Source of the DNA: Dictyostelium discoideum
Lineage: Eukaryota
Assembly (NCBI GenBank): GCA_000004695.1
Contig: CM000151.3
Span: 7,264,001-7,328,000 of the forward strand
Direction: 5' to 3'
Length of the DNA stretch: 64,000 bases
In this document: one piece after another, positions 3,534 to 19,492 of the stretch
Layout: each line of letters starts with the position of its first letter
Position numbering within the stretch: the stretch's first letter is position 1
The notes under the pieces: generated by a model
Database searches by the model: none
What the model was told of the DNA's origin: nothing
What the model saw: only the letters and a program-made list of their open reading frames with translations
Program-made: the position numbers and the translations under genes

Positions 3534-5288
3534 ATGAAACTTAGTATTGTTACTTTTATTGTAACAGTAGTTGTGTTATCAGTGATCTATATTTATAATA
3601 GTTCAACATTATTAGAATCTAGAGTATTGAAGGATTATGTTGAAAAGTATGATCCAAATTATAAATGGACATTAAATGCAACTTATAACACTAATGTCTC
3701 AACAATTTACATATTAGAATTAAGTATGTTTTTTTTGGATAATAATAATTGTTTAGAAAAATAAAAAAAATAAAAAAAAAAAAAAAAAAAAAAAAAAAAG
3801 TGAAAATATTAATATATATTGATAACATATTATTAAATAATTTTTTTTTATTTTTTAAATAATTATGTTAATTAGCATCACAAAAATGGGATATGGGAAA
3901 TTCAAGTAGTCCACTTTGGAAACATTGGTTAACAGTTTGTATACCAAATAATGCAACAGAAAATTTAGAAACTGGTTTATTACTTATTGATGGAGGTTCA
4001 ACAGTGAATTGGGCAGTACCAAGTGTTAATGGTTGGAGTTCTTTTGGTCAACAATTATGTAAAACATCAAATGAAATTACAGCAACAGTTCAACAAGTAC
4101 CAAATGAACCATTGATTTTTGATAATAATGGTATTAAAAGATCAGAGGATGGTATTGTTGCACTCACATGGCGAAAATATATTGATACAAAGGATTCAAA
4201 TTGGGTTAGTTTACTTCCACAAACTAAATCTGCAATTAAAGCAATGGATGCAGTTCAAGAATTTGGTAAAGAAATTGGTAAATTTTCAATTAAAAATTTT
4301 GTTGTAACTGGTGCTTCAAAGCGTGGGTATGTATTTAAAATTATTTTTTTATTTTTTTTAATTTTATTAATTTTATTAATTTATTATTTTTTAAATTGTT
4401 ATTATTATTATTTTTATTATTATTTATTTCAAAAGATGGACAACATGGGGTACAGCAATGTCATCAGATAAACGTGTTGTTGGTATTGCACCAATGGTTA
4501 TACCAATTTTAAATGTTGCAGAAAATATTGGATCACAAATGCAAGATCTTGGTGAATGGTCATTTGAATTATATGATTATATTCAAAATGGTATCACAAA
4601 TTTCCTTTATACAAAATATTTTGATAATCTTAGAAAGATCATTGACCCAATTAATTATATTAATACATTGGAACCAATTGCAAAATATGTATTAAATGCA
4701 GCAGATGATGAATTCTTTGCAGTTGATAGTCCAAAATTCTTTTATAGTAAATTAAAAGGTGAGACTAGATTAAACACCTATCCAAACACTAATCATAATG
4801 GTATTAAGAAACAAGCAGTTGCCAATGATATTGTAAACTTTTTCAAATTGGTCGCATTTGGTATTGAACGTCCAGAGATTGAATGGTCAATTGAATACTC
4901 TCAAGATAAAAACTTTGGTACAATTAAAATGAAAGTTTTAAAAGGTGTACCAACTAAAATCTCCTTATGGTTTTCAACAACAATTTCAACAACAATGAGA
5001 GATTTCCGTATGTATACATGTGAAGATGCTTCATGTTATCAAAATCTCGATTGGCAATCCATTGATATTGAAATCTCACCAGAAAACAATTATTTCTATA
5101 CAATGGAAAAACCAGCTGCTGGTTGGACTGGTTTCTTTTATCAAGTTGAATTTGAAACTGGTTCATATTACTCAACTGAAGTATCAATTGTACCAGATAT
5201 TTTACCTTTCCCAAAATGTCCAATGTCAGTTTGTGCTTCTGGTATTCCAGCTTATAAAAATAAAACTTTAGAAATAGAAAATAATTAA
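3534..5288 (+). CDS. PhoPQ-activated pathogenicity-related protein (bacterial PqaA-like, Pfam PhoPQ_related), about 497 aa
   Basis: Three exons: 3534..3723, 3876..4326 and 4436..5288, with donors GTATGT at 3724 and 4327 and acceptors AG at 3874-3875 and 4434-4435. Splice phases are confirmed against the inverted paralogue at 17651..19492 (...SQKWDMGNSSSPLWKHWLTV versus SQQWMSGHTDKPIWKHWLTI; GASKRGWTTWGTAMSSDKRVVGIAPM versus GASKRGWTAWGAAMVDKRVIGIAPM). It has an N-terminal signal peptide. Confidence 0.8.
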
Positions 5289-5336
5289 TTAATTAAAAAA
5301 AAAATAAATTTATTTATTTTCAAAATTAAAACTTAT

Positions 5337-6143
5337 TTATTCAATTGGTTTTGAATTTTTATTTAAAATTGATGGTGGTTGTAATTCACTATTTATTTTA
5401 TTATTATTATTGTAAATATTATTTTTATTATTATTAATAATATTATGGTTATTAAAATAATCATTATTATAACTAGTATTATTAATATTATTATTTGAAT
5501 TATTGATATTATTATTATTGATATTATTATTATTATTACCAGATATATTATTTAATGATGGAGATCTTATAGCTGTATCGTTTGTATTATTTATAGTATT
5601 CAATTGTTTTAATTTTCTTTCTTTTTTTAAAACTTGAATTAGCCAACTTAAATTGGGATGTAATGCAACACCTTCAACTACAATTAATGCTATTATTTTA
5701 TATGTTTTCTTTCTGTAATATGCTCTATCATGATTACATTGATCACTTATACATGTATTTTCAATAATATTTAATTCACCAGAATACCAAAAAAATGAAA
5801 ATGAAGCAGTTATTAATAAACCACTTAGTAATATTACATACTGAATTAATTAATTATTGATTAAATATTACAAATAAAAAGATTAATAAATTTATTTATT
5901 TAAATAAAATAAAATTAATAATAAAAATAAACATACCAAATACAATAATTTTGAATTTGTTGATTTTTTAAAAAAAACAAAAATACCAAATAAAGATAAT
6001 ATTAAATGGGATGCAAAATAATACCATGAATCAAATAAATGATCATGGTCATTCGTTGTTACTGATAAAGATAATAGTACAATTGAAATTATCTATTTTA
6101 AAAAAATAATAATTAATTTTTAATTATAAATAAATATAATTAT

Positions 6144-6186
<43 letters not shown>

Positions 6187-6306
6187 TACAACTTGAAATA
6201 TTACAAATAATTTTCTTAAATGATGTTCATGTTTTTTAATAAATATATAAATTTTTAAAATTGTATTTATTTGCCTTTTTAATTTTCTTAATATATTTCT
6301 ATACAT
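5337..6306 (-). CDS. Hypothetical multi-pass membrane protein with an Asn-rich C-terminal tail
   Basis: Three exons on the minus strand: 6190..6306 (ATG at 6306, MYRNILRKLKRQINTILKIYIFIKKHEHHLRKLFVIFQV, donor GTAAGT), 5937..6092 (IISIVLLSLSVTTNDHDHLFDSWYYFASHLILSLFGIFVFFKKSTNSKLLYL, donor GTATGT) and 5337..5840 (YVILLSGLLITASFSFFWYSGELNIIENTCISDQCNHDRAYYRKK... then a poly-N tail). All phases are 0. No family could be assigned. Confidence 0.45.
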
Positions 6307-7006
6307 TTTTATTTTTTATTCTTTTTTTTTTAAAAATAATTTATTAAATTTGCATGATATTTATAATTTAGAAAAAAAAAAAAAATTAAATAAATAAATA
6401 TATAAATAAATAAATAAAATTATTTTTTTAAAAAAAAAATAAGTTACAAAAAACAAAACAAATAAAATCGAAACAGATAAGGATTAAAAAAAAATAAAAT
6501 AATAAAATAATATTTTAAAAATTTCATTAAAAAATATAAAAATTCTAATAGATAGTTTGCACAGTTTTTGTTTTTTTTTTTATTTATTTTTATTTTTAAT
6601 TTTTATAAAATTAATAGTGTAGTACTCTATTTACCCATCAAAAAAATCTCTAAAAACTTGTGATTTGTTTTGTGTGGGTAATGGTGTGTGTGTGTGTGTT
6701 AATTGAAAATGAATAAAAAAAAAAATTTTAAAAAAATAAATAAAGAACCCTTAACTACCAATATTGGCCTTCTCATGTTTTAACACCAATATAAATAATA
6801 GCATTTTATATCTTCATTCGCCTAAAATTATGTAAAATCTTTTACAATTTTGAACTGAACTATCACTTTTTTTTTTTTTTCTAATCAACCCCTTTTTTTT
6901 TTTTTTTTTTTGATTAATTCTACAATATAATCTTTTAAAATAAGTTTTTTTTTTTTTTTTTTTTTTATTATAAATAATTTTTCAAAAAAATTTAATATGA
7001 TTTTAT

Positions 7007-17650: not shown

Positions 17651-18951
17651 TTAAAAATCTTCTTCAATTTCATCTTCAATGTCTTCATAGTCATCTTCAT
17701 TATCTGAATCATTGTTTTGGTTTTGATTTGATTTCACCCATGATGGTTTACCTGAGCCACATACTTCCATTGTACATTTTGGGAATGGATATACGTCTGG
17801 TACAACTGCACCTTCTGAAGTATAGGAAGCACCATTTGAGAATATAACTTGGAAGAAAAAGCCACTCCAACCTGATGTTGGTTTTAACATTGTGTGTGAA
17901 TAGTTATTGGATGATGATAAATTAATTTCTTGTGATGTCCATTTAATATTTTGGTAACATTCAGCAGCATTACAAGTAAACATACGGAAATCTCTTTTAG
18001 TTGATGAAATAGTAGTTGCTGACCATAATAATACTTTAGTTGCAACACCTTTGGTAACTTTAAGATTGATTGTGCCATAGTTTTTACAATCAGAGTAAGC
18101 AATGTTCCATGTGATTTCTGGACGTTCAATTCCATTTGCAACCAATTTGAAAAAGTTTGCAATATCAGTAGCACAACTTTGTTGTAAAATTCCACCATGG
18201 TTTGTATTTGGATAAATACCTAATTTTGTCTCACCTTTTAATAAATGAAAGAATGATTTAGTTTGATCGAAAAGGAAAAATTCATCAGATGTACCAAGTA
18301 AAATAAATTTAGCAATTGGTTTTAATGTATTTAAATAATTAATTGGATCAATAATCTTTGTAACCTTTTTAAAGTATTTGGTGTAAAGGAAATTTGTAAT
18401 ATTATGATTAACATAATCTTTAAGAGCAAATGACCAATTTCCATATGCTTCAACTTGTGCTTCAATATTTTCAACAAGATTTAAAATTGGAATAACCATT
18501 GGTGCAATACCAATAACACGTTTATCTACCATAGCTGCACCCCATGCTGTCCAACTTTTGAAATAAAAAAATAAATATATAATAAAAAAAAAATTAGAAT
18601 TAAAAGAATAATTTATAATAAATAATAATAATTAAAATTAACATACCCACGTTTAGAAGCACCAGTTACAATAAACTTTTTAATTGTGTAATTACCAGTG
18701 ATTGTTTTACCAAACTCTTGAATTGCATCCATTGCTTTTGTTGCTGATTTGGTTTGTGGAAGTAAACTAAGCCATGTTGGATCTTTAGTATCCATAAATT
18801 TACGCCATGTGTATGCTACAATATCATCCTCTGATCTTTGAACACCATCATTTTCAAAAATTATATATTGATTTGGTACTTGAAGAAGTGTAGCTGTAAT
18901 TTCACCTGATGCATTACATAACATTCCTCCAAATGAATCTAATTTACTATT

Positions 18952-18986
<35 letters not shown>

Positions 18987-19258
18987 ATTTATTTATATTT
19001 TAATTAATATTAATAATAATAATAAAAATGATTATTAATACTTACTTAATTGTTGGTACTGCCCAATTAATATTATTACCATTATTTACAAACAACAAAC
19101 CAGTTTGATGATTTGATGAATAGTTATTTGGTTTACAAATTGTTAACCAATGTTTCCAAATTGGTTTATCTGTATGACCACTCATCCATTGTTGTGATGC
19201 TATTTTTTTTATAATTATTATTGTTAATTTTATTTATTTATTTATTTTTTTTTTTTTT

Positions 19259-19301
<43 letters not shown>

Positions 19302-19492
19302 CTAATTAATAACATACCTAATTCTAAAACATAAACCTTTGCATAATTTATATCATATGTGGCGTTTAAAGTCCATTTATAGCTTGGATCATACTTTTCA
19401 ACATATTTTTTTAATTTTTTAGATTCTGATAAAACAGAACTACAACTAATTAATATTATTACAATCAAAAATAATAAATTATTTATTTTCAT
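17651..19492 (-). CDS. PhoPQ-activated pathogenicity-related protein (PqaA-like), inverted paralogue of 3534..5288
   Basis: Four exons on the minus strand: 19318..19492 (ATG at 19492, signal peptide, donor GTATGT), 19046..19199 (donor GTAAGT), 18657..18946 (donor GTATGT) and 17651..18554. It has one extra intron (18947..19045) relative to the plus-strand paralogue. The C-terminus is an acidic DSDNEDDYEDIEDEIEEDF tail. Confidence 0.8.

Follow-up and report, generated by a model that had tools for sequence, protein, structure and literature searches.

A small lineage-specific inversion and duplications of different ages at the PqaA–TLC–U2 locus of Dictyostelium discoideum

Overview of the locus

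The stretch analyzed here is a 64-kb window of chromosome 2 of Dictyostelium discoideum AX4 (all positions are window-based). In it, two PhoPQ-related (PqaA-like) genes, PqaA1 and PqaA2, lie in inverted orientation on either side of a pair of TLC-domain genes and a tandemly duplicated 3.66-kb unit. This is an ordinary chromosomal locus, built by ordinary duplications of very different ages and one small inversion, in which a segment of ~6.3 kb carrying PqaA1 and the TLC genes was flipped in the D. discoideum lineage. The PqaA pair owes its inverted orientation to this small, fixed and lineage-specific inversion and is not a recombination engine. Each 3.66-kb unit consists of one ancestral open reading frame (ORF), here called ORF-X and frameshifted differently in each copy, plus a U2 small nuclear RNA (snRNA) gene, the conserved element of the unit. 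The value of these results is mainly corrective: four annotated AX4 "genes" represent pieces of a single ORF present as two pseudogene copies, and the understanding of the gene families involved is unchanged.

The window was compared with loci from seven other assemblies using gene models, DNA maps, Rfam searches and a protein tree. These assemblies are GCA_054859385.1 (L001, labelled D. discoideum), GCA_054859205.1 (L007, D. cf. discoideum), an independent assembly of strain ACTFIT, which is near AX4 (L008), D. firmibasis (L002), two assemblies of D. citrinum (L003 and L010) and D. dimigraforme (L004). The window, L001, L007 and L008 are referred to as the D. discoideum-clade assemblies (n = 4). 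The G+C content of the region is ~13–28%. The ACTFIT assembly reproduces the structure of the window at 99.6% identity over 18 kb, and the duplicated structure is also carried by the more divergent L001; the tandem duplication is therefore no assembly artefact, a possibility that the original prediction had raised. The features of the locus are listed in Table 1.

Table 1. Features of the locus in the 64-kb window, in order of position.
Feature	Position	Strand	Description and basis
GST-like gene, left flank	174..1152	-	ORFs; GST Pfam families on orthologous models in L001, L002, L007 and L008
Left breakpoint interval	1421..3372		Holds EF-hand gene and palindrome, without DsrE; only low-complexity homology to L002/L003
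EF-hand gene, D. discoideum-clade-specific	1714-2151	-	~157 aa; ORF; models in L001, L007 and L008
Segment inverted in the D. discoideum lineage	3372..9726		~6.3 kb; PqaA1, ~250-aa gene, TLC-A, TLC-B; DNA maps
PqaA1 (XP_642850)	join(3534..3723, 3876..4326, 4436..5288)	+	497 aa, 2 introns; PF10142; inside inverted segment
Hypothetical Asn-rich gene	5337..6306 (approximate)	-	~250 aa; ORFs 5337-5603 and 6154-6306; no Pfam domain; inside inverted segment
TLC-A, TLC domain-containing protein 4 A (DDB_G0277027)	complement join(8048..7888, 7768..7519, 7372..7007)	-	258 aa; PF03798; exact AX4 match
TLC-B, TLC domain-containing protein 4 B (DDB_G0277029)	complement join(9552..9398, 9299..9056, 8966..8592)	-	257 aa; PF03798; exact AX4 match
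Right breakpoint interval	9727..10076		AT-rich, TLC-B promoter to unit A; outgroup homology ends at 9719/9726, unit homology from 10077
Tandem unit A (ORF-X A + U2 A)	10077..13619	+	blastn self-comparison, pairwise alignment
ORF-X copy A, pseudogene in AX4	10148..12949	+	1-nt deletion at ~10341; 86-nt deletion at 11584
Putative U2 A promoter	13107..13208	+	DUSE match TCCCAAAA at 13107 (-102); proximal block AAATCAC-T8-GCCTTAAAAAAGCAA, ~-44 to -12
U2 copy A	13209..13423	+	Rfam RF00004, 76.2 bits, model positions 1-192 of 192
Tandem unit B (ORF-X B + U2 B)	13733..17608	+	blastn self-comparison, pairwise alignment
ORF-X copy B, pseudogene	13816..16677	+	2-nt deletions at ~14747, 14980 and 15389; in-frame TAA at ~15311
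U2 copy B	17193..17407	+	Rfam RF00004, 72.7 bits, model positions 1-192 of 192
PqaA2 (XP_642859)	complement join(19492..19318, 19199..19046, 18946..18647, 18554..17651)	-	510 aa, 3 introns; PF10142

A small inversion underlies the inverted PqaA layout

The inversion is seen directly when the window is mapped to the outgroups, a comparison with other strains and species that the original prediction had proposed. Window positions 3372-9719 map forward to 9824-16220 of the D. firmibasis locus (L002) and positions 3446-9726 forward to 9918-15970 of the D. citrinum locus (L003), while the flanks run in reverse relative to these species: window 13-1421 corresponds to L002 18929-17594, and window 17567-27371 is likewise reversed. 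PqaA2 belongs to the reversed flank (window 17567-19620 to L002 9705-7580) and lies outside the inverted segment, as does the ORF-X/U2 array, which in D. citrinum is already placed against the 3' end of PqaA2. The predicted history of repeated duplication and inversion is therefore supported by synteny, in the form of duplications of differing ages and one inversion. The expectation that the enclosed 16-kb block would be the inverting unit is not: only 3372-9726 was flipped, with PqaA1 and without PqaA2 and ORF-X/U2.

Gene order points the same way. The D. firmibasis locus reads 219-aa gene (+), PqaA2 (+), PqaA1 (+), 222-aa gene (-), TLC-A/B (-), DsrE-like gene (+) and GST (+). The D. citrinum order (L003, L010) is PqaA2 (+), ORF-X (-), U2 (-), ORF-X fragment (-), PqaA1 (+), 227-aa gene (-), TLC-A (-), TLC-B (-), 903-aa gene (+), U2 (+), DsrE (+) and GST (+), and that of D. 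dimigraforme is PqaA2 (+), PqaA2' (+) and, further along, PqaA1 (+), 248-aa gene (-) and two TLC genes (-). PqaA2 and PqaA1 are direct repeats on the same side of the TLC pair in all three outgroups, and are inverted in 4/4 D. discoideum-clade assemblies, L001, L007 and L008 having the same inverted layout as the window. Given the direct orientation in three outgroups and the PqaA protein tree described below, the direct arrangement is ancestral, and the inversion is derived and postdates the split from D. citrinum. Since it was the inversion that moved PqaA1, the inverted PqaA layout is its product and not its cause.

Both breakpoints fall into intergenic intervals (Table 1). No repeats were found at the breakpoints, and in D. 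firmibasis and D. citrinum the inverted matches between the two breakpoint regions are only AT-rich stretches of 10–11 nt, which is chance level. In the outgroups a DsrE-like gene of 150–161 aa is situated between TLC-B and the GST gene (L002 16897-17382, L003 20934-21386); a tblastn search detected no DsrE in the entire 64-kb AX4 window. The GST-like gene of the left flank corresponds, in collinear order, to the GST gene that follows DsrE in D. firmibasis and D. citrinum.

An intergenic palindrome is present between the EF-hand gene and PqaA1 (2539-2606 / 2747-2814), with 68-nt arms that are 97% identical and ~140 nt apart and a predicted fold of -114 kcal/mol; taken at 87-nt arms, identity is 89% with 102 nt between them. 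This palindrome (2539-2814) is unique in the window and present in ACTFIT, L001 retains one arm, and it is not found in D. firmibasis or D. citrinum. It was considered as a breakpoint relic and rejected, as its absence from the outgroups and its single arm in L001 leave it no demonstrable role.

In type, the event resembles lineage-specific micro-inversions that turn tandem into inverted duplicates, with which it shares two breakpoints, a size of a few kb, restriction to one lineage and collinear flanks. Larger chromosome inversions between D. discoideum and D. firmibasis have been reported (PMC11193728); compared with these chromosome-scale rearrangements, the inversion in the window is much smaller, has no detectable breakpoint repeats and has one remodelled junction.

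The PqaA and TLC pairs are duplications of different ages

The inverted PqaA-like genes (3534-5288, plus strand; 17651-19492, minus strand) and the tandem TLC genes (7007-8048 and 8592-9552) were correctly recognized in the original prediction; both TLC genes are on the minus strand. Splice sites of the four models were read directly off the window sequence, and the spliced models contain no internal stops and are identical to annotated AX4 proteins. Both PqaA genes match PF10142 (PhoPQ_related) over their full length, with Pfam E-values of 1e-37 to 1e-62 and exon-level matches of 129–210 bits against a cut-off of 20.3 (profile positions 43-367), and both have hydrophobic, signal-like N-terminal segments. 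As an inverted repeat they align by blastn at 74.5% nucleotide identity over 1200 nt and 68.8% over 416 nt. With 32.0 and 36.6 bits, the last exons of the TLC genes exceed the cut-off of 24.6 for PF03798 (TRAM/LAG1/CLN8).

PqaA1 and PqaA2 share 60.6% amino acid and 72–74% nucleotide identity, with a non-synonymous divergence (dN) of 0.28 and a synonymous divergence (dS) of 0.5–0.64. TLC-A and TLC-B are only 36% identical at the amino acid level and 67% at the nucleotide level over just 245 nt, with dN 0.57 and saturated dS; their tandem duplication is ancient. The dS values of both pairs are lower bounds, maximum-likelihood estimates being unstable (0.31 for PqaA, 16 for TLC). With dN 0.28 and dS of at least 0.5 for PqaA, saturation for TLC and dS ~0.1 for the 3.66-kb unit, the locus records three unrelated duplications and no single burst. 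The case that the original prediction had set against itself, an old PqaA duplication unrelated to the inner ones, therefore holds in part.

A neighbour-joining tree of PqaA proteins recovers a PqaA1 clade in 100% of bootstraps as well as a PqaA2 group, each with one orthologue per species from four species. The order (dimigraforme,(firmibasis,(discoideum,citrinum))) is recovered with support of 98% and 80%; near-root support values above 100% arise from double counting and were disregarded. The PqaA duplication thus predates the split of D. discoideum, D. citrinum, D. firmibasis and D. dimigraforme, and it is independent of the pair in D. purpureum, which forms a separate clade. D. purpureum was also considered as a synteny outgroup and found uninformative on polarity: its homologues are ~24.5 kb apart, in opposite orientation, non-syntenic and in a clade of their own. 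Identity to the D. purpureum homologue is 53% for PqaA1 and 63% for PqaA2, PqaA1 having evolved faster.

PqaA2 contains a 99-nt intron (GTAAGT...ATAG, 18947-19045) at a place where PqaA1 reads through (4020-4060), so the gain or loss of this intron postdates the PqaA duplication. The D. dimigraforme locus (L004 1-3955) carries an extra tandem PqaA2, the two proteins being 507 and 505 aa long and 94% identical in a trimmed alignment, which indicates a second PqaA2 duplication in that lineage. Within AX4, the window PqaA genes are 41% identical to a PF10142 protein whose UniRef name begins "Autocrine p…" and which was taken as AprA. Full-length PF10142 and signal-like N-termini are features of the AprA/PF10142 family in Dictyostelia that PqaA1 and PqaA2 share, but XP_642850 and XP_642859 are paralogues separate from AprA.

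Each tandem unit holds one decayed ORF and a U2 gene

The two units repeat with a period of 3656 nt and are ~90% identical including gaps (blastn blocks of 1540 and 1387 nt), or ~92% at aligned bases. The predicted tandem duplication of a 3.7-kb unit is thereby borne out; its description as a two-gene unit is not, as there is one 968-codon ORF, and the U2 gene had been missed. When the longer version is taken at each A/B indel, a single 968-codon ORF with one stop results. The AX4 lesions were found base for base in the independent ACTFIT assembly (6/6), and the L001 orthologue of copy A is an intact ORF of 948 aa. The ACTFIT annotation splits ORF-X into four genes of 444, 434, 451 and 426 aa, and the two-gene description evidently stems from such fragment-based annotation. 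An intron absorbing the 1-nt frameshift near 10341 was considered and dismissed: no GT...AG pair brings both copies back into frame, and the reading frame continues without a break in copy B and in L001 copy A.

Differences between ORF-X A and B number 81, 54 and 69 by codon position, with 130 non-synonymous against 33 synonymous codon changes. The resulting dN is 0.07 and dS ~0.10, and the dN/dS ratio (omega) is 0.67–0.78 with a bootstrap interval of 0.60–1.22, which includes 1; omega is 0.41–0.55 between orthologues and 0.68 against D. citrinum. ORF-X thus appears poorly constrained, and the family as a whole is probably under weak constraint.

This family comprises Dictyostelium-only proteins of ~900–950 aa, some with an N-terminal Rho_N/SAP-like domain. 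That N-terminal motif is the sole recognizable feature of ORF-X. Against a cut-off of 24.9 bits it reaches 18.6 bits in AX4 copy A, while a paralogue scores 36 bits. ORF-X is 45–48% identical to DDB_G0271438 and DDB_G0271166 of the "Rho termination factor N-terminal domain-containing" family and 33% identical to DDB_G0268918, with family alignments spanning 98–99% of the ORF-X length. Unlike members of the DDB_G0271438 family, both AX4 copies described here are frameshifted pseudogenes. Linkage to U2 was considered as a family-wide trait and discarded, as the DDB_G0271438 cluster has no U2; the linkage is particular to this locus.

U2 snRNA genes and their upstream elements

Both U2 copies match the complete, untruncated RF00004 model well above its gathering score of 46 bits, and no other Rfam family was detected in positions 1-24000 at a permissive E-value. 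Orthologous copies in L001, L003, L007, L008 and L010 score 72.7–79.1 bits. U2 A and U2 B are 97.7% identical (5 substitutions, at U2 nucleotides 79, 133, 140, 166 and 179), so that the U2 gene is the best-conserved segment of the unit, compared with ~92% for ORF-X. The start of the RNA, AAUCAAGUGUAGUAUCUGUUCU, including the GUAGUA region, differs from the Rfam consensus (GAUCAAG…) at its first base only. In the seven U2 copies compared, which come from four genomes (D. discoideum clade and D. citrinum), nucleotides 3-85 including GUAGUA are invariant, and ~35 nt of 3' flank are conserved. The branch-point-binding region, a U-rich candidate Sm site and terminal stem-loops of known U2 genes are also found in the window copies.

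Upstream of Dictyostelium non-coding RNA genes, the motif DUSE ([AT]CCCA[AT]AA) usually lies ~60 nt before the gene start (PMC3188802, PMC7919456). The window U2 genes share a DUSE-type upstream motif with these genes, but at a spacing of ~102 rather than ~60 nt: copy A has an exact match (Table 1), and copy B a DUSE-like box, TCCCAAAT, at 17091 with one mismatch to the consensus. A DUSE-type box together with the proximal block AAATCAC-T7/8-GCCTTAAAAAAGCAA is conserved in 7/7 U2 copies (four genomes). The AAATCAC block (13165-13172 / 17149-17157) lies ~60 nt downstream of the DUSE and ~40 nt upstream of the U2 5' end, and may mark the start of a precursor or act as a proximal promoter element.

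Both U2 copies are probably expressed. As they are full-length and conserved in their upstream boxes and 3' flank, the youngest duplication would in effect have left a second, predicted U2 snRNA gene, a 5-substitution variant of the first. U2 genes and their variants are already known in D. discoideum (PMC11193728); 17 annotated snRNA genes and developmentally regulated U2 variants were described by Hinas et al. 2006, as cited in PMC11193728 and PMC3188802. The pair reported here offers a natural set of U2 variants for work on snRNA variant expression in Dictyostelium.

As in known multicopy U2 systems, the window U2 is duplicated inside a multi-kb unit with non-U2 sequence, and its copies are variants with few substitutions. 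The human RNU2 locus is a tandem array of ~6-kb units. Compared with that array, the window has two copies and ~92% unit identity, which points to a simple recent duplication that has not been homogenized.

In D. citrinum, U2 genes are located on either side of the PqaA1–TLC block (L003 7983-8193, minus strand, and 20524-20734, plus strand). The pair forms a 432-bp inverted repeat with a perfectly identical core of 284 bp (L003 7951-8234 / 20483-20766, ~12.3 kb apart), and the same pair is present in L010. The core spans the proximal promoter, the U2 gene and the 3' flank, with sequence further out ~80% identical, and bears the mark of gene conversion or of very strong selection on the U2 genes. 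This is the only good inverted-repeat substrate at the locus, and no inversion polymorphism was seen in D. citrinum, the two assemblies (L003, L010) being collinear. The 903-aa gene beside the right-hand U2 was considered as a relative of ORF-X and rejected for lack of a tblastn match.

Order of events

We consider it probable that five events account for the locus. An ancient tandem duplication would have produced TLC-A and TLC-B. A direct tandem duplication of a secreted AprA-like PhoPQ_related gene would then have given PqaA2 followed by PqaA1, before the divergence of the four species. In the common ancestor of D. citrinum and D. discoideum, ORF-X (~950 aa, with a Rho_N/SAP-like N-terminus) and U2 would have come to lie as a unit by the 3' end of PqaA2. 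After the D. citrinum split, a two-break inversion would have flipped the ~6.3-kb block of PqaA1, the ~250-aa gene, TLC-A and TLC-B, leaving PqaA1 and PqaA2 inverted ~12.4 kb apart and the ORF-X/U2 unit between TLC-B and PqaA2, with loss of DsrE. Finally, the 3.66-kb ORF-X + U2 unit would have been duplicated in tandem in the AX4/L001 lineage, and both ORF-X copies would have decayed in AX4. Structures, orthology, orientations, lesions and relative ages can be read off the compared loci; the order of the last three steps and the break-and-rejoin mechanism of the inversion are what we infer.

The comparison of units bears on this order. Orthologous units of AX4 and L001 are ~95% identical and paralogues within a genome ~92–93%, and L007 has the inversion but one unit and one U2. 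Distances are 0.05 between orthologues, 0.07 between A and B, 0.08 between L007 and A, and 0.105 between L007 and B; in the unit tree the B clade has 100% support, and 58% of bootstraps place L007 outside the duplication. Most probably, the inversion came before the unit duplication in the AX4/L001 lineage, which in turn preceded the decay of ORF-X.

Several observations weigh against parts of this account. The left junction has been remodelled, with DsrE gone and the EF-hand gene present, so that more than a simple inversion took place there, and AT-rich intergenic divergence limits breakpoint resolution to ~0.3–2 kb. The orientation in D. dimigraforme comes from gene calls alone. Rooting of the unit tree is weak, L007 grouping with the A copies in 41% of bootstraps, and the A–B distance within a genome (0.069–0.071) is smaller than across genomes (0.078–0.079), which hints at some gene conversion that would blur the dates. 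Omega of 0.4–0.7 suggests that some constraint on ORF-X persisted, and truncated products may be conceivable. As for U2, the DUSE precedes the predicted 5' end by 102 nt instead of ~60, copy B departs from its consensus at one position, and activity is deduced from sequence.

Alternative explanations

According to the original prediction, the inverted PqaA paralogues would themselves be substrates for non-allelic homologous recombination that flips the enclosed 16-kb block, perhaps between strains. The PqaA arms are indeed real inverted repeats of ~1.7 kb, and an inversion did happen at the locus. However, the paralogues are direct in the three outgroups and so could not have mediated it; the inverted segment holds PqaA1 and leaves out PqaA2 and the ORF-X/U2 array; the breakpoints (1421-3372 and 9727-10076) are intergenic and not in the PqaA genes; and the longest complex exact match between the arms, which have 72–74% nucleotide identity, is 22 nt. 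Moreover, the window, L001, L007 and L008 all have one orientation despite differing by up to ~12% over the aligned locus. The recombination-substrate model is largely refuted, and we regard it as very improbable. A substrate far superior to the PqaA arms is offered by the U2 genes of D. citrinum, with their 432-bp repeat and identical 284-bp core: in a D. citrinum-like ancestor, where U2 genes would have flanked the block in opposite orientation, U2–U2 recombination followed by deletions could have led to the AX4 layout. Such an exchange would, however, also have inverted the ORF-X fragment and the 903-aa gene and left one ORF-X/U2 on each side; in AX4 and L007 the PqaA1 side carries none, which calls for several extra deletions, and no ORF-X/U2 remnants have been seen so far between PqaA1 and GST in D. 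discoideum-clade genomes. The ORF-X-to-U2 order beside PqaA2 in AX4 fits the left D. citrinum unit without any exchange, neither U2 is found in D. firmibasis, and the collinear D. citrinum assemblies lack polymorphism. A U2-mediated inversion is accordingly improbable, and a two-break inversion is preferred.

For the duplicated unit, the four ORF-X fragments could be real, separate genes in a true two-gene unit, as ACTFIT annotators called four, every fragment is a long ORF, and omega is below 1 in some comparisons (0.41–0.68). Yet the split points differ between A and B and coincide with the 1-nt, three 2-nt and 86-nt deletions and one stop, restoring the lesions yields the single 968-codon ORF, and the L001 orthologue as well as all paralogues elsewhere are single proteins of ~900–950 aa. 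The even spread of A/B differences over codon positions and the excess of non-synonymous changes argue in the same direction, and we hold separate genes to be improbable. A more serious competitor, although still an unlikely one, is that the unit duplication predates the radiation of the D. discoideum clade, that L007 was collapsed by unequal crossing-over, and that gene conversion preserved the similarity of A and B. It would fit the greater proximity of L007 to A than to B, the 41% of bootstraps that join L007 with A, the slightly lower A–B distances within genomes and the presence of two ORF-X copies at the same place in D. citrinum. Conversely, the A–B distance is smaller than that between L007 and A, and faster decay of B accounts for the excess distance to B. 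The D. citrinum copies are only 78% identical, and only the U2-linked one is closest to AX4 (81–85% in the 3' part, against 73–74% for the other copy); the D. citrinum duplication is therefore a different, older event. A duplication within the AX4/L001 lineage, after the inversion, remains our preferred reading.

A bolder extension would make U2 the selected cargo of the 3.7-kb unit, with U2 genes shaping the layout of the locus, the PqaA1–TLC block a recurrent inversion hot spot and the AX4 copies members of the developmentally regulated variants; we think this improbable as well.

Other features of the locus

The ~250-aa Asn-rich gene inside the inverted segment has counterpart models of 222–258 aa at the same position in L001, L002, L003, L004, L007 and L008. 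No further copies of PqaA, TLC or ORF-X were found by tblastn in the 64-kb window, and a tRNA scan of the window returned none, giving no link to tRNA-targeted retroelements. In D. citrinum, a very long (ATT)n microsatellite extends over ~2650-4100 of L003 and fills the stretch that separates the 3' end of PqaA2 from the full-length ORF-X; L010 differs from L003 in this interval, and its PqaA2 lies beyond the fetched range.

L001 and L007 show only ~87–90% identity to AX4 across the locus, gaps counted, and ~95% in ORF-X. By these values, the two isolates seem to represent separate lineages of a D. discoideum species complex. The locus provides a dated series of TLC duplication, PqaA duplication, ORF-X/U2 arrival, inversion, unit duplication and pseudogenization, and this series could mark relationships among D. 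discoideum-clade isolates.

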